This document shows, piece by piece, positions 6,857 to 58,681 of a stretch of DNA of 64,000 bases. The notes beneath the pieces were generated by a model. It did no database searches, was not told where the DNA came from, and saw only the letters and a program-made list of their open reading frames with translations. A program made the translations under genes and the position numbers. This DNA comes from a virus. Its lineage: Duplodnaviria > Heunggongvirae > Uroviricota > Caudoviricetes. Each line of letters begins with the position of its first letter. Within the stretch, counting starts at the first letter, position 1. The stretch is from positions 92,944-156,943 of IMG/VR virus record IMGVR_UViG_3300028042_000001; one strand, written 5' to 3'.

Positions 6857-6880
6857 CATTTTAATTGACATTGCATGGGT

Positions 6881-7424: not shown

Positions 7425-7450
7425 TTTAAATTAAAAAGGATATATATTAT

Positions 7451-8193: not shown

Positions 8194-8201
8194 AATTATA
8201 T

Positions 8202-8423: not shown

Positions 8424-8443
8424 ATTAAAAGAGAGAATTTATT

Positions 8444-9454: not shown

Positions 9455-9700
9455 ATGGATATTATAAAAACAGGAATTGATGTATTACTTGTTAGCTGTA
9501 TTAATGATAGTAATACATTAACTATAGGTGATGTTTATGAAGTTTTAATATATCAAAATATTCCTCTTGAAAATACATATACTATTGGTGTTATTAATGA
9601 TACTGGTATTTTTGCCAAATATGATGCTAAAACATTTTCTATGGTTTATATTAAACCTGATGTTATATTAAATGATCCTAAACCAGAAGGGCCATTATAA
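9455..9700 (+). CDS. hypothetical protein (81 aa)
   Basis: ORF abutting neighbours (TAGATG junction). Confidence 0.4.
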   Translation: MDIIKTGIDVLLVSCINDSNTLTIGDVYEVLIYQNIPLENTYTIGVINDTGIFAKYDAKTFSMVYIKPDVILNDPKPEGPL

Positions 9701-10168
9701 ATGTCTGCTATAGCTTTTTCTCAAAGTGCGTATGATGAATTTGATAGTAAAGGTAAAACCACAGTAAAACGGTTTTTTAAGTCAAAAGGATTTTTTTGTT
9801 ATCCTGATGATGAGGAACGAGGAATTGATCTTCATTTTTCAAAAAAAGATCATCCAGATATTTATATAGAAGTAGCGGTAAGACATTATTTTGATTGGCC
9901 GTTGTATGATTGGAAAATAAAAGCACCATGGGAAACAATTCATATTTTACGAAGAAAGGCTAAATATGGAAGACCTGAACCGTTTTGGTATGGCGATAAA
10001 GCATACTTATTCGAACTTAATAGAAGTATGGAACAAGCTTTTGTTATAAGACCTTGTGATTTACAAAAGAAATATTTAAAACTTCTAACTAATGTTCGTG
10101 GGAAGGAATGGATTTATGATATTCCTGTAGAAGAATTTAAAATATTTGATTTAAGAATGCATCAGTAG
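9701..10168 (+). CDS. hypothetical protein (155 aa)
   Basis: ORF; no recognisable motif. Confidence 0.45.
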   Translation: MSAIAFSQSAYDEFDSKGKTTVKRFFKSKGFFCYPDDEERGIDLHFSKKDHPDIYIEVAVRHYFDWPLYDWKIKAPWETIHILRRKAKYGRPEPFWYGDKAYLFELNRSMEQAFVIRPCDLQKKYLKLLTNVRGKEWIYDIPVEEFKIFDLRMHQ

Positions 10169-10234
10169 TCAAATTGGATTGGCACAAGATTACGAATCTT
10201 GATTGATGTGGGTTCGACTCCCATCTGGTGCTCA
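10159..10234 (+). tRNA. tRNA-Arg (anticodon ACG)
   Basis: acceptor GCATCAG/CTGGTGC, anticodon stem CAAGA/TCTTG with loop TTACGAA, T-arm TGGGTTCGACTCCCA. Confidence 0.6.
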
Positions 10235-10240
10235 AAATAT

Positions 10241-10316
10241 GCGTCTGTAGCTCAGTTGGAAGAGCACGAGATTTCTACTCTCGGTGTCGGAGGTTCGATC
10301 CCTCTCAGGCGTTCCA
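10241..10316 (+). tRNA. tRNA-Arg (anticodon TCT)
   Basis: acceptor GCGTCTG/CAGGCGT, D-arm TAGCTCAGTTGGAAGAGC, anticodon stem CGAGA/TCTCG with loop TTTCTAC, T-arm GGAGGTTCGATCCCTC, CCA. Confidence 0.75.
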
Positions 10317-10339
10317 TAATTAATATAAAGGAGGATGAT

Positions 10340-10840
10340 ATGGAAAGGGTGATAGTGTTAAATTATGATTATAGTTTTCTAAATGTTGTTTCTCCTGAAA
10401 AGGCTTTTTCTTATATAGCTCGTGGAAAGGTTATTGTTGAAAAAGTAGCGGATAAGGTCTTGACAACTGCTGAAAAATCATTTAAAATACCTGTAATTGT
10501 TCGGTTCTCTTATATGATAAGACAAATATATAAGAGAAAAATACCATGGAGTAAGCGTAATGTGTGTATCAGAGATAATTATACCTGTGCATACTGTGGT
10601 GTAAAAAGTGATATAATGACAGTTGATCATGTTATACCTAAAGCTCATGGAGGAAAAAACACTTTTGATAATTGTGTTGCATCATGTAAGAAATGTAATA
10701 ATAAAAAAGGTGATAAAACATGTAAAGAAATAGGAATGTTTCCTTCTCATAATAGAACACATCCTACTGTTTCTGACTTCATGCGATTATGGTATAAACA
10801 ATATAATGTAAATGATATTATAAAATCAATATGGGAGTGA
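10340..10840 (+). CDS. HNH endonuclease
   Basis: CAYCGVKSDIMTVDHVIPKAHGGKNTFDNCVASCKKCNNKKG HNH motif; RBS AAGGAGGA; the track ORF start at 10199 is translated tRNA sequence, so the start was moved to the ATG at 10340. Confidence 0.75.
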   Translation: MERVIVLNYDYSFLNVVSPEKAFSYIARGKVIVEKVADKVLTTAEKSFKIPVIVRFSYMIRQIYKRKIPWSKRNVCIRDNYTCAYCGVKSDIMTVDHVIPKAHGGKNTFDNCVASCKKCNNKKGDKTCKEIGMFPSHNRTHPTVSDFMRLWYKQYNVNDIIKSIWE

Positions 10841-10844
10841 TAAT

Positions 10845-11057
10845 ATGAGTACAACTGCATTAGATATACAAAAATTTAATTTATGCGAATATAAAGCTAG
10901 AGAAAATGATATTATTATTGATGTTAAATCTGAAGGATTTTTATTGACAAGAAGATCAGATTATTGTATACTTGGAAAAATCTTAACTGTAGAAGAGATG
11001 TATAGTTATTTTTGTGGTTATGAATCAGGATTAGATAAGGGGTTGTCTGATAGTTAA
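10845..11057 (+). CDS. hypothetical protein (70 aa)
   Basis: ORF only. Confidence 0.35.
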   Translation: MSTTALDIQKFNLCEYKARENDIIIDVKSEGFLLTRRSDYCILGKILTVEEMYSYFCGYESGLDKGLSDS

Positions 11058-11078
11058 ATATTAATACGAGGGTATATT

Positions 11079-11486
11079 ATGAATTTTAATCCATATGGTG
11101 TTTGGGAAGTTACTACAGAAGGTGATTGTGAAGGAAGAAGCATAACACATCTTGGTACATTTACGGGTTATTTTGATGTTATAGCTTTAAATCTTGCAAA
11201 ATCTTGTTATTATACTCTTGATTTTAAAAGAATTGATATTGGTAATAATTTAGTTCCTACAAAAAATGAAGTGTCTGTTCGTATTTGGGAAATGGGAAAC
11301 AATATTAAACAATACGAACAATTATTAACAGATCGTGATGTTTATATTAAAGAAAGTAAATTTTTTAAATCTGTTATTATTTGCACTAATAATCCTATAT
11401 CTGAGGAAGAAGCAGAAGCATTAAAAGCTAGAAACTTACTTATTGAAAAAGGCTTTGATGTTGAATCAATAAAAAAATATATATAG
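11079..11486 (+). CDS. hypothetical protein (135 aa)
   Basis: ORF with GAGGG RBS. Confidence 0.45.
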   Translation: MNFNPYGVWEVTTEGDCEGRSITHLGTFTGYFDVIALNLAKSCYYTLDFKRIDIGNNLVPTKNEVSVRIWEMGNNIKQYEQLLTDRDVYIKESKFFKSVIICTNNPISEEEAEALKARNLLIEKGFDVESIKKYI

Positions 11487-11491
11487 TATAT

Positions 11492-11563
11492 GTCTATGTT
11501 CGATGGTTCGGTGTGCTGTCTGCAAAATAGTAAATAAGGGTTCGATTCCCTTCATAGACTCCA
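11492..11563 (+). tRNA. tRNA-Cys? (anticodon GCA)
   Basis: acceptor GTCTATG/CATAGAC perfect; anticodon loop CTGCAAA with a G-U-containing stem; T-arm AAGGGTTCGATTCCCTT; CCA. Confidence 0.55.
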
Positions 11564-11567
11564 ACAT

Positions 11568-11664
11568 GGTATGTGCCGACCAAAGGTGGTCAGCAAGATT
11601 TGAAATCTTGTGGCATGTCTGATGAGGGCATGGGGTTCAATTCCTACACATACCGCATTAATTA
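11568..11664 (+). tRNA. tRNA-Ser (anticodon TGA), type II
   Basis: acceptor GGTATGTG/CACATACC, anticodon stem CAAGA/TCTTG with loop TTTGAAA, long variable arm GGCATG..CATGCC-like, T-arm GGGGTTCAATTCC. Confidence 0.75.
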
Positions 11665-11710
11665 AATATATAGTATATTTAATAATATATAATATAAAAA
11701 GGAGATTATT

Positions 11711-12157
11711 ATGAGGTATGAAGGATGTACAAGTGAAACAGATGCAATAGTAGAAGATATTACAAGAGAAGAATTTCCAAATCTTGATGGAGCAAATATT
11801 ATGATTGTTATGGATACCAAAAAAAAGGTATCTGGTGGTCGTTATGTTATTGCACGTATTAAGAAAATGAATGATGAATTAAAGTTTTTTACTGCTAACG
11901 ATTATGGTATTACATATGATTATGTAATGTTTATAGATAAAGTTATTTTTGATGAGCTTAATTATGATGATAAAAAAAGAATAATTTATCATGAATTATG
12001 TCATTGTGAAGTTGATCCTAGTAAAAATAATCCTTATGGGATAAAAGATCATGAAATTCAAGGATTCCATGATGAATTATCTTATAATGAAGATGATCCT
12101 AGATGGAATGAACGGGTTAGTGCTGTTGCTGAATCTATTTATGATGATGACGAATAA
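11711..12157 (+). CDS. hypothetical protein with HExxH motif (possible metallopeptidase-like)
   Basis: YHELCHCE contains HExxH; AAGGAG RBS; acidic C-terminus. Confidence 0.4.
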   Translation: MRYEGCTSETDAIVEDITREEFPNLDGANIMIVMDTKKKVSGGRYVIARIKKMNDELKFFTANDYGITYDYVMFIDKVIFDELNYDDKKRIIYHELCHCEVDPSKNNPYGIKDHEIQGFHDELSYNEDDPRWNERVSAVAESIYDDDE

Positions 12158-12182
12158 TATACAAAATAATACACATTAACTA

Positions 12183-12211
12183 TTGACTTTATATTTAATG
12201 TGTATTATAAT
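12183..12211 (+). promoter_or_regulatory. sigma70-like promoter TTGACT-17-TATAAT followed by inverted and direct repeats
   Basis: consensus -35/-10; downstream IR AATAACCATTAT/ATAATGGTTATT and direct repeat ATTATGGTAGTTAATGAT x2. Confidence 0.45.
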
Positions 12212-12316
12212 AACCATTATGGTAGTTAATGATTACTATAATGGTTATTATGGTAGTTAATGATCATGAAGCAGAAACACCAGAAGTACAAGAAGAAATA
12301 ATAAAATAAAAAATAT

Positions 12317-12390
12317 GGCTCGTTAGCTCATTGGAAGAGCGTTTGGCTGATCACCAAAAGAGATAGGATCGTTACCTGTACGAGCTACCA
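12317..12390 (+). tRNA. tRNA-Ile? (anticodon GAT)
   Basis: acceptor GGCTCGT/ACGAGCT, D-arm TAGCTCATTGGAAGAGC, anticodon stem TTTGG/CCAAA with loop CTGATCA, CCA; T-loop non-canonical. Confidence 0.55.
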
Positions 12391-12472
12391 CATAAAAATG
12401 AACCTCTATTTATATTTATACAAATGGAAATAGAGGTTCATAATATGATTAGTTATAAAAGAGTAAAAAAAT

Positions 12473-12560
12473 GACCATGGGTGGTTCGTCTAATTAGGGA
12501 GGACACTTACCCGTTATGTGGTTTGAAATATAGGTTCGATTCCTATACGATTCATGGTCA
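12473..12560 (+). tRNA. long tRNA-like element (88 nt)
   Basis: perfect acceptor pairing GACCATG/CATGGTC and T-arm ATAGGTTCGATTCCTAT; internal arms not resolvable by eye. Confidence 0.35.
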
Positions 12561-13051
12561 TTTTTTTATTACTAAGGATATATCATGATAAAACACATAA
12601 TTCTGCTGATGTGTTTGTGATGGATATTGCTCAAACATATGATGGATTAAAAGTTATAGAGTATAATACATTTAATTCTGCTGGATTATATGCCTGTGAT
12701 GTTGGTAATATAATTGATGGTATAAACAATTTCTTACAAGAACCATGTTGAGGTTCATTACCTCTTCATGAGAACGGACTATGCGTAAGTAGTCTTCCTA
12801 AGTGGTACGCAACCATGTAGGGCAAAATCAATAAGTCTTTTTGAAGGACATGTGTTGATGTTGTGGTGAAAATCCATATTACGATCCAATGGGGCTATAC
12901 TTGGGAGGACTGAATGGCTTGCAACCAATCGGGCAGGGTTCAATTCCCTGTAGTTCCACAATATATTTTTCAGCGATATCAGCCACTAAAGCTGATAACG
13001 GTGTTCTTAATCACTTAACAGAATGCGAAGGAGTAGTGACCGGACTGAAAC

Positions 13052-13125
13052 GCTACATGGTGAAATGTTATCACAAAGGGATATATGACCCTTAGTTTCA
13101 GGTTAAATTCCTGATGTAGCAACCA
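13052..13125 (+). tRNA. tRNA-like with apparent 8-nt anticodon loop (ATATATGA)
   Basis: acceptor GCTACAT/ATGTAGC, D-stem GTGA/TCAC, anticodon stem AAGGG/CCCTT enclosing 8 nt, T-arm TCAGGTTAAATTCCTGA. Confidence 0.4.
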
Positions 13126-13133
13126 TTTTTAAT

Positions 13134-13217
13134 GGAAGTATGGCAGAGTATGGTAATGTACCTGATTGCTAATCAGTGGTCAAGGAAACTTGCGTAGGTT
13201 CGAATCCTACTACTTCC
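13134..13217 (+). tRNA. tRNA-Ser (anticodon GCT), type II
   Basis: acceptor GGAAGTA/TACTTCC, D-arm TGGCAGAGTATGGTAATG, anticodon stem CTGA/TCAG with loop TTGCTAA, long variable arm, T-arm GTAGGTTCGAATCCTAC. Confidence 0.7.
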
Positions 13218-13272
13218 TCATATTATGATTATCATGTAGATAATATTAAATTAATTCAAAAGGAGAGTTATT

Positions 13273-13617
13273 ATGGAAGGAGTAGATTTCCCAAAAGTAA
13301 ATAAAGAAGAAGATCAAGGTCAAGGTCAAGAGGCATTTACAGTTTCTGCTGAAATGCTTTTAGCTCAAATTGTACAGGCTGTTGGGGAAGAATTTGTTAT
13401 TATTCCAACTTCAGGATGGCAAAAAATTGTTACTACTATTCAAGATTATTCTAAATCAGCACAAAATTCACTCACAAATGATGAAGATTTACTAAAAATT
13501 TTAGAAGGTCTTGGTATTCCTGTAATTCCTGTTAGTCTTGCACCAAAACAGGAAGAAAGCCTTATTATTATGCCAAATGATACACCTAAAGGCGAATCTA
13601 AAATAATTATTCCATAA
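13273..13617 (+). CDS. hypothetical protein (114 aa)
   Basis: ORF with AAGGAG RBS. Confidence 0.45.
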   Translation: MEGVDFPKVNKEEDQGQGQEAFTVSAEMLLAQIVQAVGEEFVIIPTSGWQKIVTTIQDYSKSAQNSLTNDEDLLKILEGLGIPVIPVSLAPKQEESLIIMPNDTPKGESKIIIP

Positions 13618-13664
13618 ATTATGTTTTATATGCGTTAATGAAATTTATAAAAAAAAGGTAAATA

Positions 13665-14603
13665 ATGAAAAGAAAAACACTTAAAGCAGTATTAAGAAAA
13701 AAGTTTGATCATTTTGTTAAATCTATAGAAGATGATAAAGTAAGGCAACTTGTAAATAATAATTCTATTATTACTGGTGGATGTATTGCTTCTATGTGGT
13801 TAAAAGAAAAAGTCAATGATTATGATATTTATTTTACAAATAAAGAAACTGTTTTAGCTGTATGTAATTATTATTGTGATAAATTTAATGACTATAATGG
13901 AACTCAAAAATTCTCTATTATTGATGGTACTATTCCTGTTGAAGATTATAAGATTGATGGTGTTTATGTAAGTCAATCTTGGTATGATAATAATGTTACA
14001 GAAGGACGTATAAAAATTAGAATAGAATCTGCTGGTATTGCATCAGTACCAGATATAGATTATGAAGATGCTGATTTTGATAATGATGATAATGATGATA
14101 ATGATGATGAAATTAATGTTGATGATACACAGGAACAATATAGACCTGTTTATATTTCTGCTAATGCTATTACTTTAGATAATGATATACAACTTATCAT
14201 TCGTTTTTTTGGTGATGCTAAAGAAATTCATTCTAATTATGATTTTGAACATTGTAAATGTTGGTGGTCTTCTGTAGATAATATATTAGAATGTCCTTCT
14301 AAATCATTAGAATGTTTGTTAGCACGAGATTTAGTATATTCTGGTAGTAAATATCCTTTAGCTTCTATTATAAGATCTCGGAAATTTATTAATAGGGGTT
14401 TTACTATTAATGCAGGTCAATATTTAAAAATGTGTATTGAACTTAATAGTTATGATCTTACAGATTTAAATGTCCTTGAAGATCAATTAACTGGTGTGGA
14501 TGCTTATTGGTTTTCTGAAATGCTTGCATGTGTTGATACTGATAAATTATCAACATCAGAAGATAATTCCTATATGTTTGAATTGATAAATAAGTTTTTT
14601 TAG
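13665..14603 (+). CDS. hypothetical protein with highly acidic tract
   Basis: 312-aa ORF; DIDYEDADFDNDDNDDNDDEINVDD acidic low-complexity region (GATGATAAT tandem codons). Confidence 0.5.
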   Translation: MKRKTLKAVLRKKFDHFVKSIEDDKVRQLVNNNSIITGGCIASMWLKEKVNDYDIYFTNKETVLAVCNYYCDKFNDYNGTQKFSIIDGTIPVEDYKIDGVYVSQSWYDNNVTEGRIKIRIESAGIASVPDIDYEDADFDNDDNDDNDDEINVDDTQEQYRPVYISANAITLDNDIQLIIRFFGDAKEIHSNYDFEHCKCWWSSVDNILECPSKSLECLLARDLVYSGSKYPLASIIRSRKFINRGFTINAGQYLKMCIELNSYDLTDLNVLEDQLTGVDAYWFSEMLACVDTDKLSTSEDNSYMFELINKFF

Positions 14604-14682
14604 CTTGACAAATATAATCTCATATTGTATGATAATTTATCAACAATACAAAATATTAATATTACAATATGAGAGGTTTATT

Positions 14683-15057
14683 ATGATTGAAGACTTAATA
14701 ATGGCTAAGAAATATATATCAAAAGCAAACAGAGCATCAAAAAAAGGATTAGATTTTACACTTACTTTTGCTCAATATAAAAGGTTGATGTCTAGAAAAA
14801 CTTGCGCTTATTCTGGTCTTAGATTTTCTGAAATTAATGAAAAACGTGCATGGAAAAATGAATGGTTAGGACTTACTCTTGATCGTATTGATAATAGTAA
14901 AGGATATATTCAAGGTAACGTGGTTCCTGTGTGTAATGGAGTTAATCAATTAAAAGGACAGTGGGAAAATCCTCTTCTTCCTTTTGATGAAAAAACAACT
15001 ATAAAAATCATTACAAAAATTATGTTAGCTAAGAATAATCTTGACATTCTTGATTAG
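14683..15057 (+). CDS. HNH-family endonuclease (LDRIDN..GN type)
   Basis: LTLDRIDNSKGYIQGNVVPVCNGVNQLKGQW motif; start moved to the ATG after GAGAGG RBS; TTGACA-17-TATGAT promoter at 14605. Confidence 0.6.
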   Translation: MIEDLIMAKKYISKANRASKKGLDFTLTFAQYKRLMSRKTCAYSGLRFSEINEKRAWKNEWLGLTLDRIDNSKGYIQGNVVPVCNGVNQLKGQWENPLLPFDEKTTIKIITKIMLAKNNLDILD

Positions 15058-15107
15058 ATCTGATATATTGTATTTATAAATCAGATTAATTCATCAAAAG
15101 GAATAAT

Positions 15108-15473
15108 ATGTCTCGTAAAATAAAGATTAATCAGGCAACAAGAAGAACTGCTCAAATTATTGTACAGAATATCTTAAAGCCTACTTATTTTAAAGAAGGT
15201 GTTCCTCTTGACGAAATAGCTGATGCTCTTAGAGATATGGGTATAACTATGATTATGGAGGATAACACTGAATGGTCTGGTTTTTTAGTAGGATCTACTG
15301 GTGAAGCTTTTATTCGTCTTGCTCCAACAACTACTTCTGTGTTTGGAAATAGTTGGTGTAATAAAAATATTATTTTTTACGAGCCATATGATAACACAGG
15401 GTTATTAATCACTTGGTATAAATGTGAATCTAGAAGATATGAAAAATTTGAAGTTATAGGCTATATTTCATAG
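15108..15473 (+). CDS. hypothetical protein (121 aa)
   Basis: ORF with AAAGGA RBS. Confidence 0.45.
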   Translation: MSRKIKINQATRRTAQIIVQNILKPTYFKEGVPLDEIADALRDMGITMIMEDNTEWSGFLVGSTGEAFIRLAPTTTSVFGNSWCNKNIIFYEPYDNTGLLITWYKCESRRYEKFEVIGYIS

Positions 15474-15528
15474 TATATAATAATATTAATAATGATAAAT
15501 AATTATCAAAAAAAAAAGGAGATTTATT

Positions 15529-15750
15529 ATGGCATTACTTAAAAAGAAGAAAAATTACGCTAAAGTTATGAGTTCTTTTACACAGGTTGTTACAGACCTT
15601 CAGGAAATTTCAGATCGAGAAGAATCTAATATAGAAGCTTTTATCGAAAAACGGAATGATATTAATAGTAAAATTGATACATCTGAGGCAGAAATGAAAA
15701 ATTGTAAAACTGCTATTGATAATGTTAGGAATATATTTCCTAATGTATAA
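15529..15750 (+). CDS. hypothetical protein (73 aa)
   Basis: ORF with AAGGAG RBS. Confidence 0.4.
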   Translation: MALLKKKKNYAKVMSSFTQVVTDLQEISDREESNIEAFIEKRNDINSKIDTSEAEMKNCKTAIDNVRNIFPNV

Positions 15751-15760
15751 CTAATAGAAA

Positions 15761-15835
15761 GGGGTATTACTCCACGCTGGTAGAGAGAATAGGCTTAGAC
15801 CCTATACAGGATCGGTTCGACTCCGATATACCCTA
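15761..15835 (+). tRNA. tRNA with anticodon TAG (Leu by standard code), short variable arm
   Basis: acceptor GGGGTAT/ATACCCT, anticodon stem ATAGG/CCTAT with loop CTTAGAC, T-arm ATCGGTTCGACTCCGAT identical to the tRNA at 3194. Confidence 0.6.
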
Positions 15836-31487: not shown

Positions 31488-33434
31488 ATGGGATGTTTTG
31501 AAACAGACTTGCAACGATATATTCATATATCTAAATATGCAAGATGGATAGAAGAGGAAAATCGAAGAGAAACATGGGAAGAATCTGTGGGGAGATTTAT
31601 AGATTTCTGGGAAAATAAGAAAGTTGGTATAGGAAATGTGTCATTAATAGAAGATCCTGAAATTCTTGGAGATATTGAAAAAGCTATATTGAGATGTGAT
31701 ATAATGCCTTCTATGCGTGGTATGATGACTGCTGGAAAGGCTCTTGAACGGGATAATATTGCGCTTTATAATTGTACTGCAAGCGCTGTTATCCATCCTG
31801 CCATTTTTTCTGAGGCATTTTATATATTAATGAATGGTTGTGGTTTTGGTTTTTCTGTTGAAAGGCAATATATCAATGAATTGCCAGAAATTGCAGAAGA
31901 ATTGTTTGAAACAGAAACTACTTTAATCATTAGAGATTCAAAAATTGGATGGGCTACTGGATTGAAAGAATTGATTTCTATGTTATATAATGGACAAATT
32001 CCTAAATGGGATCTTTCTAAGGTTCGTCCTGCTGGTGCTCGTTTAAAAACCTTTGGTGGTAGAGCTTCTGGCCCTGAACCTCTTAATAAATTATTTATTC
32101 ATGTAGTATCATTATTTAAAAATGCTTCTGGAAGAAAATTAACTTCTATTGAATGTCATGATCTTATGTGTTATATTGCTGATACTGTTATTGTTGGATC
32201 TGTTCGTAGAGCGGCATTAATATCATTATCTAACCTTACTGATGATCGTATGAGAAGAGCAAAAGATGGACAATGGTGGATGGTTGCTCCTCATAGAGCA
32301 CTTGCTAATAATTCTGTATCATATACAGAAAAACCTGATCTAGATTCATTTTCGAAGGAGTGGAGAACTCTTTATAAAAGTAAATCAGGAGAAAGAGGTA
32401 TATGGAATAGTGAAGGTGCTAAAAAATTGTCAATAGAACAAGGAAGGCCAAATGCTGAAGATTATAATTTTATACCTAATCCTTGTGGAGAAGTATCTAT
32501 TCGTCATACCGGAGGCGTGTGTAATTTAACAGAAGTTATGATACGACCTAAAGATAGTCTTAATATGATAAAAAAGAAAATTAGACTTGCTACTATTATG
32601 GGAACTATTCAAGCAACATTAACTAATTTTCGTTTTTTGAGAAAGGTATGGAAAACAAATGCAGAAGAAGAGAGATTATTAGGTGTATCTTTGACAGGTA
32701 TTATGGATCATAAAATATTTAATAATCAATCATCTAAAAAAGAAATTAGTGATTGGTTTGGTATTGACTCTGATTTAGAAACAATACTTGATTATTTACG
32801 GGAATATTCACATAAAGTAAATAAACGATGGGCTAAAAAACTTAATATTAATAGTACAGGACATGTTTGTGTTATAAAACCATCAGGAACTGTTTCTATT
32901 TTGACAGGAACATCTTCTGGTATTCATCCTAGATATGGACAATATTATATAAGACGTGTAAGAAATGATAAAAAAGATCCTCTTTCTCAATTAATGATAT
33001 CAGAAGGTATTCCTTATGTTGATGAAGGAGATAAATATGTATTTTCTTTTTATGTCAAATCTCCTGATCATTCTGTAATTCAATGTGATATTGGAGCAAT
33101 GAAACAATTAGAAATATGGAAAATTTATAAAGAAAATTGGTGTGATGGTAATCCTTCTCAAACAATTTATTATAATGATGATGATTATTTCGCTATTGCT
33201 GATTGGTTGTGGAAAAATTGGGATGTTGTTGGAGGATTATCATTTTTCCCTTACACTGATGCATCTTATACTAATGCTCCTCTTGAAGAAATATCAGAAG
33301 AAATATATAATAAATCATTAGAAACATTTCCTAAAGATATAAATTGGGAAATGTTGTCTAATTTTGAACTGAAGGACAGTACAGAGTCTGCAATGACATT
33401 AGCATGTTCTGGAGATAATTGTTCGTTAGTATAA
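31488..33434 (+). CDS. nrdJ: ribonucleotide reductase, class II-like (NPCGE active site), single chain
   Basis: FIPNPCGEVSI catalytic Cys/Glu motif typical of class II RNR; 648 aa; no adjacent beta subunit gene. Confidence 0.75.
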   Translation: MGCFETDLQRYIHISKYARWIEEENRRETWEESVGRFIDFWENKKVGIGNVSLIEDPEILGDIEKAILRCDIMPSMRGMMTAGKALERDNIALYNCTASAVIHPAIFSEAFYILMNGCGFGFSVERQYINELPEIAEELFETETTLIIRDSKIGWATGLKELISMLYNGQIPKWDLSKVRPAGARLKTFGGRASGPEPLNKLFIHVVSLFKNASGRKLTSIECHDLMCYIADTVIVGSVRRAALISLSNLTDDRMRRAKDGQWWMVAPHRALANNSVSYTEKPDLDSFSKEWRTLYKSKSGERGIWNSEGAKKLSIEQGRPNAEDYNFIPNPCGEVSIRHTGGVCNLTEVMIRPKDSLNMIKKKIRLATIMGTIQATLTNFRFLRKVWKTNAEEERLLGVSLTGIMDHKIFNNQSSKKEISDWFGIDSDLETILDYLREYSHKVNKRWAKKLNINSTGHVCVIKPSGTVSILTGTSSGIHPRYGQYYIRRVRNDKKDPLSQLMISEGIPYVDEGDKYVFSFYVKSPDHSVIQCDIGAMKQLEIWKIYKENWCDGNPSQTIYYNDDDYFAIADWLWKNWDVVGGLSFFPYTDASYTNAPLEEISEEIYNKSLETFPKDINWEMLSNFELKDSTESAMTLACSGDNCSLV

Positions 33435-33894
33435 TACATAACATAATGGTATGATAAACGATATTATCATACCATTATTGTATATAAAATAAAATATAGG
33501 ATAAACAATGACATTAAAAATGTGTGAATATATTTCATATAAAAAATATATAATATATATTAAATCGTGGGATGAATGGCAAACAGCAATTCGTTCTCAT
33601 CTATTTAAAAACCCAATGAGAATAACATGAAAATAAATATAGAATGCCCAGAATGTGATGCAGTTTGTAATGTTAAACATGATATGGATGATGAATTATA
33701 CATAATTTCATTTTGTCCGTGTTGTGGATGTGATATAGAAGAAGATGATATGTATTATGCATATTATAATGAATAAATGATTTAGATATTGACTTTTATT
33801 TTAATATACACTATATTAAAATAAAATATTAAAAGGTTCTGATTGTATATATAATATTAGAACCTTTTAATATATATAAAAACGGAGATATAAA

Positions 33895-34704
33895 ATGAAA
33901 AATATTATTGGTATTATTTTAATAGGAGTATTTTGTTATTCCTCTTCTGCTGTTGCTTCAATAATGAATGATGATGGATGCCCTAAACAAACATGTGAGA
34001 CTATAGAAGTACATGAATCTCATACATACACAACAACAGAAGAGGTTGTTACTCATTATACATCTGAAGTTGTATCAGAATATCAAATTCAATGGGATAA
34101 TAATATTAATATTAATAATAGCGATAATAATAGCGATAATAATAGCGATAATAATAGCGATAATAATAGAAATAATAACAGTCGTTATAATGATATAAGA
34201 AGAACATGGAATAAAAACGGTACTTGTAGTGTTACTATGGATAGTAATCTGCATTCTGGCTGGCATAATAGATGGTCTTCTAATGATAATATCATAATTA
34301 GTAATATTAATGGTTTTACTCATTATGATATCAATGATATTAATGAATGCGCTTTTTATCTAAATGCGTTATCAACTAATAATAGAAGTGGTGGTAATAA
34401 TAGAAATGGTGGTAATAATAGAAATGGTGGTAATAATAGAAATGGTGGTAATAATAGTACCGGGTATTTATCACGAAATATATCATTCATTGATATATAT
34501 TCTACTAGCTTCTTTACAACATCACACACAGATTCTTATGATTATTTTTCTACTATATGTACTTATGATATAGATCCTTTCGAATGTCCTGAAAATAATT
34601 GTGAAGATGATAACTCCCCCGTACCTGAACCATCAACTATGTTACTATTTGGTGTTGGTATTTTCAGTATAGGATTATTTAACATAAAAAAAATAAAAAA
34701 ATAG
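33895..34704 (+). CDS. secreted tandem-repeat protein with PEP-CTERM-like C-terminal anchor
   Basis: signal peptide MKNIIGIILIGVFCYSSSAVASI; NSDN x4 (12-nt repeats) and RNGGNN x4 (18-nt repeats); C-terminus PVPEPSTMLLFGVGIFSIGLFNIKKIKK. Confidence 0.6.
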   Translation: MKNIIGIILIGVFCYSSSAVASIMNDDGCPKQTCETIEVHESHTYTTTEEVVTHYTSEVVSEYQIQWDNNININNSDNNSDNNSDNNSDNNRNNNSRYNDIRRTWNKNGTCSVTMDSNLHSGWHNRWSSNDNIIISNINGFTHYDINDINECAFYLNALSTNNRSGGNNRNGGNNRNGGNNRNGGNNSTGYLSRNISFIDIYSTSFFTTSHTDSYDYFSTICTYDIDPFECPENNCEDDNSPVPEPSTMLLFGVGIFSIGLFNIKKIKK

Positions 34705-34777: not shown

Positions 34778-35044
34778 ATGACTAATAAAAATAAAATCAA
34801 AATTTTAATAGAAATTGCTGAAGATAATAATGTTCTTGTTGAACGTGGTAATATGATTCGATGGGATGGATCTATTGGATCTCAATTTCGATATAATATC
34901 AAAAAGAATGTAATTCGTTTTGAATGTAGAAAATTATCATCTACATTATGGACACGTATTAGTTCTCATAGTATTAAAGATTTAAATATCAATTTATGGA
35001 CAGGGAATATGAACTTAGTCAATAAAAAACAAAATAGGTATTGA
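34778..35044 (+). CDS. hypothetical protein (88 aa)
   Basis: ORF with GAGGAAAA RBS. Confidence 0.35.
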   Translation: MTNKNKIKILIEIAEDNNVLVERGNMIRWDGSIGSQFRYNIKKNVIRFECRKLSSTLWTRISSHSIKDLNINLWTGNMNLVNKKQNRY

Positions 35045-35105
35045 CTTTTATTATAATATATTGTATATTAATTGAAAATAATAATAATAATAAAGGAGAA
35101 TTATT

Positions 35106-36164: not shown

Positions 36165-37556
36165 ATGAATGAATTTTTAAATAAAGTACCACAAAAAGAA
36201 TCAATCATCTGGAAGACTTTAATCGATGCTGGATATCAAACATATCTAGTTGGTGGTGCTGTAAGAGATATTCTTTTGTGTGAATCTCCTAAAGATTTTG
36301 ATTTTGCTACAAAAGCAACGCCTTCTGATATTAGTAATGTTTTTGAAAACAGTAATTTTAAATTGGATTTTGTTGGAGCATCTTTCGGTGTTATGATGAT
36401 TGATGATATTGAGGTCGCTACTTTCCGAGGAGATCGGTATTTTGGTGGTGGAGACAAGGATGTAGAAATAACATATGTTGATAATATCGATGAAGATCTT
36501 TCTAGGAGGGACTTCACTATCAACGCAATGGCTATGTCTCCTAATGGAAATCTTATTGATCCTTTTGATGGAGAAGCTGATTTAATTAATCATGATTCTA
36601 TTATAATTCGGTTTGTTGGTAATCCTGAAGATCGGATTAATGAAGATCCAAACAGAATTATGAGAGCATTCCGGTTCTCTGCTAGGTTTGATGCTGATTT
36701 TGCTAGAACAACAGCAGTTGCGTTAAATAATAATATAGATAAAGTCAATATGATCGCTCCTGAACGTATTCGATTAGAAATAATTAAAACTTTAAAATCT
36801 ACTAAAGATTCTTCTATATTTTGGGAATTGCTTCGTAACAGTGGTGCTTTGGATATTATATTTCCTGAGATGGGCTATGGATGGAAACATGATCATGGTA
36901 ATCATCATCCAGAAGATGTATGGACTCATAATATGCTTGCTGGTGATTATATAAAAGGAGAAAGACCTTTGCTTAAATTAGCAGGATACCTTCATGATGT
37001 TGGAAAACCTGCGTCATATGATCCTGAAAAAAGAACATTTTATGAACATCATACTATGGGAGCTGATATTATTAGAGAAAGGCTTTCGTTATTGAAATTT
37101 TCTAATGAAGAGATTCGATATATTGTTAATCTTACATTGGTTCATATGGATGGAACACGAGGTATGTCTGATAAAGCTCGTAGGCGTTTAAAGAATAAAT
37201 TAGGTAGATATGATATTAATTGGGAAGAATATCTTACTATTCGTGTTGCTGATAGACATGCTAATCTTTCACGCCCCGATTTTACAGTAAAACAAATCAA
37301 TGATTATATTGAAATGTTTACAATAGATGAAGTTGTACCTATTAGTGTTAATTCTCTTGTATTGTCTGGTGGTCAGATTATAGATATATTTAACTTGACA
37401 CCATCTCCTATTGTTGGTAATATACAAAGAGAGTTGTTAAGATTAGTTGTAGAAAATGGTGATCAATTTAATACAATTCCTCGTCTTGTAGATCATATAA
37501 TGGATGTGTTTGATATTGAACCTGATTTTATAAAAGTTCAGAAATTAACAAAATAA
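36165..37556 (+). CDS. cca: tRNA nucleotidyltransferase (CCA-adding enzyme) with HD domain
   Basis: N-terminal polymerase-beta head LVGGAVRDILL..PKDFDFAT; C-terminal HD motif YLHDVGKP and HH pairs. Confidence 0.8.
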   Translation: MNEFLNKVPQKESIIWKTLIDAGYQTYLVGGAVRDILLCESPKDFDFATKATPSDISNVFENSNFKLDFVGASFGVMMIDDIEVATFRGDRYFGGGDKDVEITYVDNIDEDLSRRDFTINAMAMSPNGNLIDPFDGEADLINHDSIIIRFVGNPEDRINEDPNRIMRAFRFSARFDADFARTTAVALNNNIDKVNMIAPERIRLEIIKTLKSTKDSSIFWELLRNSGALDIIFPEMGYGWKHDHGNHHPEDVWTHNMLAGDYIKGERPLLKLAGYLHDVGKPASYDPEKRTFYEHHTMGADIIRERLSLLKFSNEEIRYIVNLTLVHMDGTRGMSDKARRRLKNKLGRYDINWEEYLTIRVADRHANLSRPDFTVKQINDYIEMFTIDEVVPISVNSLVLSGGQIIDIFNLTPSPIVGNIQRELLRLVVENGDQFNTIPRLVDHIMDVFDIEPDFIKVQKLTK

Positions 37557-38729: not shown

Positions 38730-39503
38730 ATGGGAAAAGGTAAATTGCATGAATTGTTGGCTGTAGAATCTGATTTGGAAGGACGTGCTCGAAATATTAT
38801 GAACGAAACACGCAAAGTATTTTCTGACAAGGCTGTTTTGTTTATGGGTGCGGTTCGTAGTTATAATCCATTTGTTGATGATGGTATTGATTATCCTTCT
38901 GAATATCAGGAGCTTACCTCTACTGTTGATGAAAAACTTTCTTATACAGGAAAAACAATTGTACAATATTATGATGCTTTGTTGCAAAAGGAAGCTACTA
39001 ATCAAGTAGCTAAAGCAGATCTTATTGTTGATGGTGTTGTTATTGCATCGAATTTACCTGCTACGTTCCTTTTAGGTATGGAATCACGTCTTCGTAAAGT
39101 ACGAGAGGTATATGAAAAAATTCCTACTTTGTCTATCGGTACTGAATGGCAAAAAGATGAATCAAAAGGAGAAGGTGTATGGTGTGTTGCACATCCTGAA
39201 GAGACTATGAAGACTGAAAAGACAGTCAAATCTAAAGTCCTTTATGATGCAAAGTTTCCTAAAGCAAATGAGGGCGGTCAATCAATCCCTGCTGTAATTG
39301 ATAAATGGACAGAAACAGTTAATGTTGGTAAATATACTAAACATGTTTGGTCTGGAATGGTTTCTCCTGCTCGTAAATCTGAATTGCTTGATCGTATTGA
39401 TACATTGCTTCGTGCTGTTAAAAAGGCTCGTCAAAGAGCAAATAGTACTGAAGTAGTAAAAGTTAATGTTGGTAAAGCGTTAATGGATTATATCAATGGG
39501 TAA
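38730..39503 (+). CDS. hypothetical protein (257 aa)
   Basis: ORF with AAGGAG RBS. Confidence 0.45.
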   Translation: MGKGKLHELLAVESDLEGRARNIMNETRKVFSDKAVLFMGAVRSYNPFVDDGIDYPSEYQELTSTVDEKLSYTGKTIVQYYDALLQKEATNQVAKADLIVDGVVIASNLPATFLLGMESRLRKVREVYEKIPTLSIGTEWQKDESKGEGVWCVAHPEETMKTEKTVKSKVLYDAKFPKANEGGQSIPAVIDKWTETVNVGKYTKHVWSGMVSPARKSELLDRIDTLLRAVKKARQRANSTEVVKVNVGKALMDYING

Positions 39504-40058: not shown

Positions 40059-40124
40059 GTCATTATAAGAATGAGAATTTATAATAAAACGAACAAATAC
40101 GGAATAAGTCAAACACTACGATAG

Positions 40125-40186
40125 CTCAGTGGTAGAGCGCCTGTATATTAAACAGTATGTGGTAGGTTCAATTCCTACTCGTAAAT
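40125..40186 (+). tRNA. tRNA-like gene with imperfect acceptor stem and ambiguous anticodon loop
   Basis: D-arm TAGCTCAGTGGTAGAGC, T-arm GTAGGTTCAATTCCTAC, anticodon region CTGT ATATTAA ACAG; acceptor ACTACGA/TCGTAAA has two terminal mismatches. Confidence 0.4.
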
Positions 40187-41491: not shown

Positions 41492-41662
41492 ATGGAAATT
41501 TTATGTAATGAATGTTTTCAACCGTTGATAGTGCATGAATATGATATTGGAATTTATGTTGATACTTGTGATTGTCAGAAGGAAAAATATGAAATACTAG
41601 ATGAAGAATTATCTAACGAAATAGAAAATCTTCTTTCTGATTATGATATACTTCATAAATAG
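41492..41662 (+). CDS. hypothetical small Cys-rich protein
   Basis: CNEC..CDC pattern; TTGACA-16-TATAAT promoter at 41260. Confidence 0.3.
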   Translation: MEILCNECFQPLIVHEYDIGIYVDTCDCQKEKYEILDEELSNEIENLLSDYDILHK

Positions 41663-48161: not shown

Positions 48162-49505
48162 ATGATTGTTAGAAAAATTGCTGGTATGTTGAGAGTTGGT
48201 GGTATGATGAGAGTTGCTATTCCTGTAATGTTGCTTGTAGCTACTTTAATGATAGCTCCTATGATGGTTGGTGTTAATGATGCAGGACAGCGAACAGTGG
48301 TTCAATATCTTAATGGTACTATGACTGTTAAATTTGATGCTGGTTGGTATCCTAAATTGGCAGGAAAAACAATCGAATATAATGATTTTATCACATTCGA
48401 TTTTGATAGATCTAAAGCTGAAGGTGGTGTAGCCACACTAGATCAGGCAGGTATTTCAGTAAGATATCAGGATGGTGGTATGGGAACTGTTTTTGGTAAG
48501 GCTCGGTTTGCTCTTCCTAATGATGAACAAACTATGCTAGAACTTAATAAAGCATTTAGATCGCATTCTGGTCTTGCTAACAAACTCATTAAACCAGTTA
48601 CAGAAGAGGCTATGAACCTTACTGCTGGTTTAATGCGGTCTGAAGAAGCTTATGCTACAAAACGTGCTATTTTCACACAATTAGCAAAGTCTCAAGTAAA
48701 TAAAGGTAAATTCGAAACAAAACTTGAAACAACTTCTATAAAGGATGAAGCTACTGGAAAAACTGTATGGAAAGAAGTTCCTATTATTGCTCTTGATAAG
48801 AATAAAATGCCTATTCATATTTCTTCAGATCTTGTTGATTTTGGTCTTAGTCTTGCAAGTTTTCAACTAAATGATCCGGGATTCGAGAAATCAACAATGA
48901 AGCAAATCTCAGACAAGCGTGATGCTACTATGGCTATCATTACTGCTAAAGCTAATGCTGAACGAGCAAAGCAAGAGGCTATTACTGCTGAAGAAAAAGG
49001 TAAAGCTAATGTAATGACTGCTAAATATGAGCAAGAAGTAGAAAAAGAAAAAGCTGTTGTTGTTGCTGAAAGAGAAAGAAAAGTAGCTGTTATTGCGGCA
49101 AATCGTAAAGTTGAGGTTGCGGAACAAGCTAAACTCGAAGCTCTTGTTGTTGCAGAACGTAAAGTTGCTGTTGCAGAACAAGCTAAACTCGAAGCTGAAC
49201 AGAAGAAACTTATGGCTAAAGAGTATAAACAAGAACAAATACTTCGTGGTGAAGGTGATGGTGCTTATAAACGTCTTGTGATGCAAGCTGATGGTGCTCT
49301 TGAACAAAAGCTTGATGCTTATATTCAAGTACAGAACGCATATGCTAAAGAATTTGGTAAGCAAAAATGGGTTCCTGAAATTCAAATGGGTTCATCTGGT
49401 TCTGAAGGTGGAAATGAAGCGGCTAATTTGATTAATCTCCTTTCTGCTAAAGCTCTTACTGATCTTGGACTTGATCTTAAAGTGCCTAATATGGTAAAAC
49501 AATAA
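48162..49505 (+). CDS. SPFH/band-7 flotillin-like protein with EA-rich coiled coil
   Basis: N-terminal TM VAIPVMLLVATLMIAPMMVG; C-terminal AEQAKLEA / AERKVAV repeats typical of flotillin EA repeats; internal ~54-nt direct repeat at 49106-49200. Confidence 0.5.
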   Translation: MIVRKIAGMLRVGGMMRVAIPVMLLVATLMIAPMMVGVNDAGQRTVVQYLNGTMTVKFDAGWYPKLAGKTIEYNDFITFDFDRSKAEGGVATLDQAGISVRYQDGGMGTVFGKARFALPNDEQTMLELNKAFRSHSGLANKLIKPVTEEAMNLTAGLMRSEEAYATKRAIFTQLAKSQVNKGKFETKLETTSIKDEATGKTVWKEVPIIALDKNKMPIHISSDLVDFGLSLASFQLNDPGFEKSTMKQISDKRDATMAIITAKANAERAKQEAITAEEKGKANVMTAKYEQEVEKEKAVVVAERERKVAVIAANRKVEVAEQAKLEALVVAERKVAVAEQAKLEAEQKKLMAKEYKQEQILRGEGDGAYKRLVMQADGALEQKLDAYIQVQNAYAKEFGKQKWVPEIQMGSSGSEGGNEAANLINLLSAKALTDLGLDLKVPNMVKQ

Positions 49506-56476: not shown

Positions 56477-56923
56477 ATGATTAAATTAAATAAACTCGAC
56501 AAACCTAATACCATCTACGCAGAAGTTATTGAAGATGGTGCTTTGACTCAATTTATAACTGCTATGGAACAACATTTTACTGTTCGTGGTGCGCTTATGC
56601 CTGATGCTCATTTAGGATATACTTTGCCTATTGGTGCTGTTATCGAAACTGAGGGTGTTGTATATCCTTCTTATGTTGGTTTTGATATTGGGTGTGGTGT
56701 GTGTGCTCTTCCTTTATCATGTAGAACTGGTGATATCAAACATAAAGCTCATCGAATTTATGAAATGATTAAACGTAATGTTCCTGTGGGATTTAATAAA
56801 CATAAAAACTCTGTTAAAGAGTCGTATAATTTTTTAGTAAATAAAGATAATTGTACTAAAACTATGCATGAAATTTATCATAATAAAAATGGTGATCTTC
56901 AGCTTGGTACTCTTGGGGGTGGT
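56477..56923 (+). CDS. rtcB: RtcB RNA ligase, exon 1
   Basis: RGALMPDAHLGYTLPIGAV, GFDIGCGV, ..LGTLGGG at exon end (conserved GTLGGGNHFIE is completed by exon 2); the ORF continues into the intron for 10 codons before a stop. Confidence 0.8.
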
Positions 56924-57991
56924 AAAATGACTGCTTCCAGCCCAAGAGGATAATCTAAATATACTGAAATCTCTTCTGATTGACTTGGAAATCCAGTAGC
57001 GAGGATGACAGGGGGCAAGCGTAAAGGTAGCCTGAGAGACTGAGTGAAGAGACTCAACAAAATGTGAGAAGCGACAGTCCGATCTACAGTATAACCTTAC
57101 GGGAAGCTGTAGAGACAACCAGAAATGAGTTGTCCGTTGTTTCAATGAAATGGTATCAAATATCCTGTTTGTATAAATAATATAAACAGGAGGATTTATG
57201 TTAGATAATATTTCAAACAATGATTTTAGTTATATCGTAGGATTTTTACAAGGTGATGGTAATTATTACAAACAATCAAGAAATCGGGGAAAAGTAACAA
57301 TAGAGTTATCTATTAGAGATAAAAATATTATAACCAAGATGATTGATAACCTCTCAGAATATAAATGTTATTATTCTGAGAGGAAAAGAAATACTAATTT
57401 TAAAGATTGTTTTGAATCTTGTAAATTAAGTATTTATGAAAAACGGTTCAGGGATGAAATAGAAAAATACATTCCTGAAGGAAACAAATCACATATTATA
57501 GAACCACCTTTAAAAGAAGATTGGTTTTCTTCGTTTGATTATTTAAGAGGAATATATGATGCTGATGGTAGTATTGGTATAACTGGTAATAATAGACCGT
57601 TTATATCATTATGTACTGATTCAAAACCGTTAAAACAGTTTGTAATAAGAATATTAAATGATAATATTGGTATTGTAAAACGCATAAATCGTAACAAAAG
57701 AGACAATATATATAATATTGTTTGTTACGATGAAGATGCTGTTAATTTTGCTGATTTATTATATAATAATTCTGATATGTATTTAGACAGAAAGTTTGTT
57801 AGTTATAAAAAAATACAATCATGGGTTAGAACCACACCAAAACGAAAGGGAACTAAGAAAACATGGTTGCCTATTGAAGATAAAATAATAATGAATAATG
57901 ATTATTCATTAGATGAAAAGGTTATCTTACTCAATCGTAGTAAAAGTTCTATCAAGACTAGAATATGGAGAAACAATAGTAACAAAACATG
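56924..57991 (+). mobile_element. group I intron in rtcB carrying a LAGLIDADG homing endonuclease gene
   Basis: exon 1 ends with U; P1-like pairing CTCTTGGG / CCCAAGAG across the 5' splice site; intron ends with G immediately before exon 2 codon AAT (N of NHFIE); locally GC-richer structured core 56950-57170. Confidence 0.7.
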
Positions 57992-57992
57992 A
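57198..57992 (+). CDS. LAGLIDADG homing endonuclease (double motif), intron-encoded
   Basis: YIVGFLQGDGNYY and YLRGIYDADGSIG motifs; TATAAATA at 57172-57179 with AGGAGG RBS; stop codon overlaps the 3' splice site. Confidence 0.75.
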   Translation: MLDNISNNDFSYIVGFLQGDGNYYKQSRNRGKVTIELSIRDKNIITKMIDNLSEYKCYYSERKRNTNFKDCFESCKLSIYEKRFRDEIEKYIPEGNKSHIIEPPLKEDWFSSFDYLRGIYDADGSIGITGNNRPFISLCTDSKPLKQFVIRILNDNIGIVKRINRNKRDNIYNIVCYDEDAVNFADLLYNNSDMYLDRKFVSYKKIQSWVRTTPKRKGTKKTWLPIEDKIIMNNDYSLDEKVILLNRSKSSIKTRIWRNNSNKT

Positions 57993-58681
57993 ATCATTTT
58001 ATTGAGATTGGTATTGATGATTATGATTGTCCTTGGATTATTATTCACTCTGGATCAAGAGGAGTTGGTCATGGATGTGCTACTCATTATATGAAAACTG
58101 CTCATCCTAATAATAAAGCAGGAGAAGGTCATTATGGATTCATGGTTGATTCTGATAATGGTAAAAATTATATAAAAGATCTTAATTTTTGTTTGGATTT
58201 TGCTTTATTGAATCGTAAAGTTATGTTGCGGTTAGTTGTTGATTCTATTAAACAACTTGGTATTGAATGTAGTGGTGATTGGGAAAATATGATTAACAGG
58301 AATCATAATCATGCAGAGTCTAAAGATGGTATTCATTGGATTCATCGTAAAGGTGCTACTCATGCAGAGAATGGTATGCTTGGAGTAATTCCGGGTAATA
58401 TGCGTGATGGTTCATTTATTGTAAGAGGACTTGGTAATGAAGATGCTTTATGTTCGTCATCTCATGGCGCTGGCCGGGTTCTTGGACGTAGAAAGGCTAA
58501 AGAGAATCTTGACCTTAATGAGTTCAAGGATACTATGGAAGGTATTGTTGCTAATGTGGATTCTGGTACTCTTGATGAATCTCCTATGGCTTATAAAAAT
58601 ATATTTGATGTAATGCGTCTTCAGGATGGTCTTGTTGATGTTATTACTCATATTAAACCTATTATTAATGTAAAAGGATAG
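57992..58681 (+). CDS. rtcB: RtcB RNA ligase, exon 2
   Basis: NHFIEIG, HSGSRGVGH, HNHA, SSSHGAGR blocks characteristic of RtcB C-terminal half. Confidence 0.8.
   Translation, partial: NHFIEIGIDDYDCPWIIIHSGSRGVGHGCATHYMKTAHPNNKAGEGHYGFMVDSDNGKNYIKDLNFCLDFALLNRKVMLRLVVDSIKQLGIECSGDWENMINRNHNHAESKDGIHWIHRKGATHAENGMLGVIPGNMRDGSFIVRGLGNEDALCSSSHGAGRVLGRRKAKENLDLNEFKDTMEGIVANVDSGTLDESPMAYKNIFDVMRLQDGLVDVITHIKPIINVKG

Follow-up and report, generated by a model that had tools for sequence, protein, structure and literature searches.

The stretch of DNA analyzed here (64,000 nucleotides [nt], hereafter the window) covers positions 92,944 to 156,943 of the IMG/VR virus record IMGVR_UViG_3300028042_000001 and contains, at positions 33895-34704 on the (+) strand, an 810-nt gene that encodes a 269-amino acid (aa) phage protein with a PEP-CTERM tail. 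The open reading frame (ORF) lies where a preliminary description of this DNA had placed it, and the coding sequence is supported by homologues and a family alignment; a Shine-Dalgarno sequence read from the DNA (GGAG, 33884-33887, + strand) precedes the ATG by 7 nt. The preliminary description had proposed that this phage protein combines a signal peptide, tandem repeats, and a PEP-CTERM sorting signal, a central reading that holds. A hydropathy scan revealed just two hydrophobic segments in the 269-aa protein, aa 1-24 and aa 246-265, which fit a predicted signal peptide and a C-terminal transmembrane (TM) helix. Specifically, aa 1-24 comprise a lysine at position 2 (K2), a hydrophobic core, and an AVA/S site (the slash marks cleavage), and a heuristic based on hydropathy predicts a Sec signal peptide of aa 1-21 (33895-33957, + strand) that would be cleaved after AVA. 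A hydrophobic N-terminus with small residues at −3 and −1 occurs in all 11 homologues described below.

The C-terminus of the 269-aa protein is PVPEPSTMLLFGVGIFSIGLFNIKKIKK, exactly as first quoted, and is a bona fide PEP-CTERM domain (aa 242-269; 34618-34701, + strand), i.e., a standard member of the PEP-CTERM domain family. It consists of a PVPEP motif, the TM helix STMLLFGVGIFSIGLF, and the basic tail NIKKIKK, and it sits at the extreme C-terminus, with P244-E245-P246 followed by hydrophobic residues 247-262, the basic residues 263-269, and the stop codon. The lack of a match to any PEP-CTERM model had been named at the outset as grounds for dropping the assignment; we found that two models match above their curated cut-offs, namely PF07589 (27.4 bits; gathering cut-off, 20.7) and TIGR02595 (22.4 bits; cut-off, 16). 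The named subfamilies PepA (NF033554), THxN (NF038125), NF038129, EDSAP-1 (NF041538), and FxDxF (NF038126) all scored below cut-off (10-16 bits vs cut-offs of 50-100), with only the tail covered. No second PEP-CTERM tail was present in any of the six frames of the 64-kilobase (kb) window.

Searches for relatives uncovered about 11 homologues in all among 1.84 billion representative proteins. A word-indexed search of 5.8 billion proteins found one of them, P0001 (249 aa, on a 152.6 kb contig), and an exhaustive HMMER search of the 1.84 billion representatives added about ten more full-length relatives, P0002-P0011, which range from 224 to 295 aa and display 25-43% identity. When the full family alignment was used in the word-indexed search, generic PEP-CTERM words swamped the result and only P0001 and P0010 were recovered; the core-only alignment recovered no relatives. 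Pattern scans (alignment A4) of IMG/VR, JGI metagenome contigs, and 185,579 species genomes yielded no further relatives, tblastn of the protein against 50,697 GenBank phages gave no match, and PHROGs holds no family for the PEP-CTERM protein. A tblastn search with the tail only against the same 50,697 phages (E ≤ 10) also gave no match, a weak negative as the low-complexity filter was on. None of 111 bacterial PEP-CTERM proteins showed homology to the core, the family profile matching them in the tail only.

The family contigs (28-47% GC) carry one copy of the gene each. Six loci (L001, L002, L007, L009, L012, and L013) share the synteny of the window, which runs from ThyX through class II ribonucleotide reductase (RNR), small ORFs, this gene, and further small ORFs to the CCA-adding enzyme and DUF7873. 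P0010 lies in a second phage-like context (Tad6, SLT, dUTPase, a different RNR, and QueD) and P0007 in a third, on a 42.5 kb contig with a family-A DNA polymerase, a PD-(D/E)XK nuclease, and Thg1, as well as a DNA methylase, an SNF2 helicase, and a DUF927 primase. Two family members are on short contigs with uninformative context. Every member with an informative context is thus accompanied by a phage-like replication or nucleotide-metabolism module, and a recognizably bacterial context was found at none of the family loci. Within the searches made, the family appears to be rare and phage-restricted. Two side observations concern individual members. In P0003 (L005) and P0011 (L012), a cysteine directly follows the predicted signal cleavage site (VIA/C and AIA/C, respectively) in a lipobox-like arrangement, and these two might be lipoproteins as well as PEP-CTERM proteins. 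On the contig of P0010, a Tad6-family (anti-Thoeris-type) protein is encoded two genes upstream (L003 651-1271).

Comparison of the family members revealed where conservation is concentrated. The invariant alignment columns are C34, P242, V243, P244, E245, L251, F252, and G255, and mean pairwise identity reaches 0.57 across the PEP motif and TM helix, the highest of all regions, as compared with 0.28 in the core, 0.19-0.24 in the beta-prone segments, 0.18 in linker 2, and 0.07 in linker 1. PF07589 matches 11 of the 12 family members and TIGR02595 matches 10, and the PEP motif is kept across phage homologues that are otherwise only 25-43% identical. Since the tail is the most conserved region, well ahead of the core, selection in the phages acts hardest on the sorting signal, and such constraint across divergent phages would be difficult to account for if the tail were not recognized by a specific host component. 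No other observation argues as strongly for these proteins being genuine substrates or ligands of exosortase.

The same pattern bears on another explanation, according to which the protein is a plain tail-anchored periplasmic protein (an Imm/Sp-like exclusion protein or a lysis regulator) and its PEP motif is an inherited remnant that no exosortase processes, the host possibly lacking the enzyme. Each phage locus carries a single PEP-CTERM gene and the window contains no exosortase, both of which suit this explanation. However, a simple TM anchor would not need the conservation seen here, i.e., an invariant PVPE and 57% identity in the tail as opposed to 7-28% in the other regions, across phages of 28-47% GC; moreover, stretches of 12 consecutive residues are shared between the phage tails and genuine PEP-CTERM tails of bacteria (see below). 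We therefore regard a remnant motif on a plain anchor as rather improbable.

Between its two hydrophobic ends, the protein follows an order of parts that is common to the family: signal peptide, CxxxxC, a long beta-prone segment, linker 1, core, linker 2, a second beta-prone segment, and the PEP-CTERM tail. The mature part contains seven cysteines. Two of these (C29 and C34) form an N-terminal CPKQTC motif (33979-33996, + strand), in which C34 never varies across the family and C29 hardly does, and two others (C231 and C236) form a CPENNC motif read from the sequence near the end of the mature part (34585-34602, + strand), which mirrors the N-terminal CPxxxC motif. The conserved core domain (aa 96-162; 34180-34380, + strand) has a beta-beta-alpha-beta-beta-alpha order with conserved C111 and C152 and, in the family alignment, the consensus R-W--NGTC ... 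WH-RWS ... TY-IND--EC. The full-length AlphaFold2 model was poor (predicted local distance difference test score [pLDDT], 58.8; predicted TM score [pTM], 0.31); in it, residues 32-67 and 189-224 form long strands, residues 100-161 are a confidently predicted core, and the linkers are disordered. The core alone (aa 96-162, 67 aa; ten sequences), by contrast, was modeled with a pLDDT of 91.5 and a pTM of 0.78. In the core model, C111 and C152 are positioned for a likely disulfide, and in the full-length model the two long strands may pair into a stalk that carries the head. No informative fold match was found for the core, and no function could be read from the fold.

A conserved, confidently folding core also helps to judge whether the protein might act as an exosortase decoy or inhibitor, whose conserved tail would saturate or block the enzyme so that host PEP-CTERM sorting stops. 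Such an activity could loosen flocs or the biofilm matrix and thereby aid phage spread, and it would agree with a tail that is much more conserved than the ectodomain and is the only part shared with bacterial proteins, as well as with the apparently early expression of the gene. On the other hand, the family conserves the CxxxxC motif as well as the 67-aa core with its two cysteines, and the core folds confidently, which favors a function of the ectodomain over a bare decoy, and there is no sign that the tail resists cleavage. We consider a decoy improbable.

Both linkers of the window protein are made of tandem repeats. The preliminary description had reported two internal arrays, and Tandem Repeats Finder (TRF) detects both, in frame: array 1 (34113-34178, + strand) comprises 5.5 copies of a 12-nt unit (96% matches, score 118) that encode NSDN four times plus partial units in disordered linker 1, and array 2 (34377-34457, + strand) comprises 4.5 copies of an 18-nt unit (98% matches, score 155) that encode RSGGNN and then RNGGNN three times in disordered linker 2. 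The pLDDT is below 50 in the two linkers into which the arrays fall. Only four arrays in the whole 64 kb have a TRF score of ≥70; because two of these four sit in one gene, the repeats are not a mere by-product of the 29% GC composition. Across the family, linker lengths vary from 9 to 34 aa (linker 1) and from 9 to 31 aa (linker 2), and other members carry unrelated low-complexity repeats in their linkers, e.g., GGGDN four times in P0011 and RENRE-type repeats in P0004. Elsewhere in the window, at 61867-61954, there is an 18-nt array of AAAAGAAAAGGAAGGATT (4.9 copies, score 134), which overlaps the 3′ end of a small ORF (61634-61900) that ends in ...KEKEGLKEKE.

A comparison of repeat copy numbers was made possible by L001, the locus of P0001, which is colinear with the window over 20.7 kb and 99.99% identical. 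Three differences separate the two sequences over this distance: two in-frame deletions in the PEP-CTERM gene and one dinucleotide change. Specifically, L001 lacks exactly two 12-nt units (24 nt) and two 18-nt units (36 nt), so the near-identical genome differs by two units in each array; apart from these array units the gene is identical in the two metagenome assemblies. The dinucleotide change (GA vs AT, window 41639-41640 vs L001 17685-17686) is the sole non-repeat difference in the 20.7 kb. The locus had initially been described as phase- or length-variable, and only the second half of this proposal stands. In the two assemblies compared, the alleles differ by whole units, as in length-variable tandem-repeat loci. 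By contrast, neither array has a unit that is not a multiple of 3 or lies in a promoter, as in phase-variable contingency loci; with units of 12 and 18 nt, the expected outcome is in-frame variation of linker length rather than on/off phase variation.

The copy-number difference could instead be an assembly artefact, in which case the locus would not truly be length-variable. Tandem repeats collapse easily, both sequences are metagenome assemblies, and a single genome is available for comparison. However, the arrays (66 and 81 nt) are shorter than typical reads and than the k of 141 suggested by a MEGAHIT-style contig name (k141_26344), which makes assembly collapse unlikely; both changes drop whole units and keep the frame; and the linkers of other members vary in length (9-34 and 9-31 aa) with repeats of their own. 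On balance, an artefact appears unlikely.

Upstream of the gene, we found a sigma-70-type early promoter (TTGACT-17-TATATT; 33789-33817, + strand) that lies 78 nt ahead of the ATG. The pattern TTGAC-N18-TATAWT occurs 12 times in the window as compared with 0.39 expected (~30-fold), with 11 of the 12 occurrences on the coding strand. The gene is presumably transcribed early, by the unmodified RNA polymerase of the host. A stem-loop with an 18-bp stem separates the promoter from the ribosome-binding site (33826-33873, + strand; dG, −19.7 kcal/mol; z = −6.0 vs shuffles), which could be a 5′ untranslated region hairpin or attenuator. A second promoter copy, which shares 25 of 29 bases with the first, is located 1.25 kb downstream (35041-35069), after the next small ORF, and the two copies (33789-33817 and 35041-35069) bracket the PEP-CTERM gene together with the next ORF of 88 aa. 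Farther upstream, directly after the RNR stop codon, there is an inverted repeat with 28-nt arms (33430-33491), probably the RNR terminator or a processing hairpin.

These expression signals are relevant to the notion that the protein is a virion or lysis component, either spanin-like or tail-associated. It is a membrane-targeted phage protein, and P0003 and P0011 have the lipobox-like cysteine after the predicted cleavage site. Against this, the gene is surrounded by early genes for replication and nucleotide metabolism, follows a sigma-70-type promoter, and is not part of a late structural or lysis module; it has no PHROG match, and the topology of a signal peptide combined with a PEP-CTERM tail is unlike that of i-spanins or o-spanins. 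A role in the virion or in lysis therefore seems very improbable.

The window has a GC content of 29%, and all of its large ORFs are on one strand. Its genes include a T4 gp43-type DNA polymerase (phrog_262, E = 3.7e-265), UvsX recombinase, a DnaB-like helicase, and primase, along with class II RNR, the CCA-adding enzyme, Rnl1 and Rnl2 (RNA ligases 1 and 2), T4-type RNase H, and RtcB. The replication and recombination core genes are thus those of a T4-like myovirus. The DNA polymerase is ~41% identical to its best relatives, those of cyanomyoviruses, and a megablast of 10 kb of the window against the 50,697 GenBank phage records gave no DNA match. Judged by these genes, the source is a distant uncultivated T4-like myovirus. 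The upstream anchor of the shared synteny is the class II (B12-dependent) RNR (31488-33434, + strand), which is also found in L001, L002, and L009. The downstream anchors are the CCA-adding tRNA nucleotidyltransferase (36165-37556, + strand) and, after it, DUF7873 (38730-39503), both also found in L001, L007, L012, and L013. In L009, the class II RNR beside P0006 (1143-4457) is 1104 aa long and gives a faint intein-splicing match; the gene is probably an nrdJ interrupted by an intein, from a related vent phage.

The window contains 22 tRNA genes, which lie at 41-15835 and 40115-40186, interspersed with small ORFs, and whose anticodons mainly serve codons ending in A or U. ARAGORN gives one call with a 4-base anticodon (13051-13125), and a tRNA-Asn has the unusual anticodon ATT (40115-40186). 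The RtcB gene (56477-58681) is split into an N-terminal fragment (56477-56953; Pfam RtcB positions 14-93) and a C-terminal fragment (57989-58681; RtcB positions 154-426) with a LAGLIDADG homing-endonuclease ORF (57198-57992) between them, probably as the result of an intron or intein-type insertion. A 447-aa protein encoded at 48162-49505 combines an N-terminal hydrophobic segment with an SPFH/Band 7 domain (phrog_11908) and is membrane-associated.

To look for bacterial proteins with the same tail, a degenerate DNA pattern was back-translated from the family-consensus tail P-V-P-E-P-[A/S]-T-M-L-L-F-G and scanned against one genome per bacterial or archaeal species. The tail 12-mer PVPEP[A/S]TMLLFG was found at at least 120 loci. 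Among the matches listed, 102 of 120 loci are titled Desulfobulbaceae, Desulfocapsaceae, Desulfobacula, Desulfobacteraceae, Thermodesulfobacteriota, or "delta-proteobacterium," a share that could be biased by the order in which the genomes were listed, which counts against the host lead below. Also among the matches listed, 110 of the 111 translated 12-mers belong to a genuine PEP-CTERM tail at the C-terminus, in many cases that of a protein of 190-280 aa. At two loci, L048 (a metagenome-assembled genome [MAG] of Desulfocapsa sulfexigens) and L082, a TIGR03013 XrtA/PEP-CTERM-system glycosyltransferase is encoded within 8 kb, with scores of 479 and 504 bits, respectively (cut-off, 393). We read the sample labels LASO19, REYS20, and TREM19 as denoting seep and vent studies. 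Another locus, L105, belongs to a Deltaproteobacteria MAG from metagenome Ga0226836, which is also the source of the phage member P0011. An Aquificaceae MAG was recovered from Ga0226836 as well (PMC8208693), in keeping with a hydrothermal source. A blastn comparison of phage and bacterial loci matched only 35-89 nt of tail-coding DNA, a result that is expected from how the loci were chosen and provides no evidence of recent transfer.

The 12-mer is a host lead rather than proof. On the strength of the tail matches, Desulfobulbales or Desulfobacterales are probable hosts of at least some family members, Desulfobacterota as the host for the family has in our estimate somewhat less than an even chance, and for this particular phage the chance is lower still. 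If the tail works as it does in bacteria, the host would be expected to possess an exosortase. A phage-encoded enzyme was considered and rejected, there being none in the 64 kb window. Campylobacterota were also considered as hosts in view of the low GC and the vent or seep samples, and no evidence emerged for or against them.

We propose that the gene probably encodes a phage-made substrate of the host exosortase that is displayed to modify the surface of the infected cell. Host RNA polymerase would transcribe the gene early, starting from the sigma-70-type promoter of the gene itself, and the Sec pathway would export the protein, whose C-terminal helix would keep it in the inner membrane. 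A host exosortase of the XrtA type would then cleave at the PEP motif, the tail mimicking host tails, and the cleaved protein would be passed to the cell envelope or the exopolysaccharide (EPS) layer, where the phage-specific head on linkers of adjustable length would alter the infected-cell surface. By masking or occupying a receptor or matrix component, it could exclude superinfecting phages; alternatively, masking could keep progeny from adsorbing to infected cells and debris. By analogy with known phage proteins, superinfection exclusion or receptor masking is the most plausible purpose.

Several points weigh against this proposal and its host component. Surface remodeling and exclusion are argued by analogy, exosortase cleavage and surface attachment are predictions, and the repeat copy numbers come from assemblies. 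The 64 kb window contains no exosortase and no polytopic membrane ORF. The exact 12-mer is present in just 3 of 11 phage tails, no taxon stands out when bacterial tails are ranked beyond the shared 12-mer, and the phage GC of 29% contrasts with a median of 47% in the Desulfobacterota loci among the matches listed. With regard to the last point, the 22 phage tRNA genes, a near-complete set, would fit a phage that is far more AT-rich than its host.

A wider scenario is possible, if tentative and in our view somewhat doubtful: a phage-specific family may have evolved to plug into the bacterial exosortase pathway, with several unrelated lineages, T4-like and others, sharing a novel head and a host-mimicking tail planted on the infected-cell surface or matrix by the host sorting enzyme and with rapidly expanding and contracting linkers tuning its reach. 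If this is true, the tail sequence would also be a marker of host lineage, here pointing to Desulfobacterota, and these would be the first T4-like phages linked to seep and vent bacteria that reduce sulfate or disproportionate sulfur. Tail mimicry would likewise suggest a new host-prediction signal for uncultivated phages of seep, vent, and sediment habitats, and exosortase would be added to the few host sorting systems (such as lipoprotein and Sec/TM signals) that serve phages in envelope remodeling. Exosortase sorting is widespread in environmental Gram-negative bacteria and biochemically poorly understood and, to our knowledge, the acceptor and fate of exosortase substrates are largely unknown; a compact, single-copy phage substrate with a confidently modeled 67-aa head would be a tractable probe of the pathway.

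The layout of the locus recalls the PeSL cassettes of T4-like phages, in which a sigma-70 promoter and a stem-loop flank shuffled ORFans (PMC2839356, PMC4122927). Like these, it consists of a lineage-variable ORFan in a T4-like genome, preceded by a consensus early promoter that has a stable stem-loop next to it; a second promoter copy, 25/29 identical, lies 1.25 kb downstream. Unlike in PeSL, however, the stem-loop is downstream rather than upstream of the promoter and lacks the GGGG...CCCC motif. Full PeSL membership was rejected with the stem-loop on the wrong side of the promoter, and for this reason we call the locus PeSL-like only; such promoter/stem-loop cassettes could mediate modular shuffling.

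In the full-text literature, we found no description of exosortase substrates encoded by tailed phages beyond two passing mentions. One is of a virus-like integrative element of Dehalococcoides that carries a PEP-CTERM domain (bioRxiv 10.64898/2026.09.15.751708). The other concerns Yellowstone hot-spring viral contigs, on which TIGR03118 proteins bearing a "putative exosortase interaction domain" are named among genes of cellular origin gained by horizontal transfer (PMC11003980). The Yellowstone proteins resemble the present ones in being PEP-CTERM-type proteins on viral metagenome contigs and are a precedent for virus-borne genes of this kind. They differ in belonging to another family, with a bacterial ectodomain, and were reported without analysis of conservation, synteny, or motifs.

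Functionally, the closest analogues are the T5 lipoprotein Llp, T4 Imm and Sp, and TP-J34 Ltp, which are superinfection-exclusion or receptor-masking proteins of the envelope. These proteins are small, expressed early, and non-essential, and they reach the envelope of the infected cell through the export and sorting pathways of the host. They rely on lipoprotein or plain TM signals, in contrast to the exosortase signal found here, and share no sequence or fold similarity with the present protein, the function of which is accordingly put forward as a probable one.

In bacteria, an example of an exosortase-sorted PEP-CTERM protein is the floc-forming PepA of Zoogloea resiniphila (Gao et al. 2018, cited in PMC12642866). 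Bacterial PEP-CTERM proteins and the phage protein are alike in their signal-like N-terminus, in the C-terminal succession of PEP motif, hydrophobic helix, and basic cluster, and in size (~200-280 aa, like many Desulfobacterota members). In comparison, the bacterial proteins form a paralogous set encoded next to EPS genes, whereas the phage protein is encoded by a single-copy phage gene and has an ectodomain without a detectable bacterial homologue. The tail is thus standard PEP-CTERM, while the ectodomain and the phage context set this protein apart.

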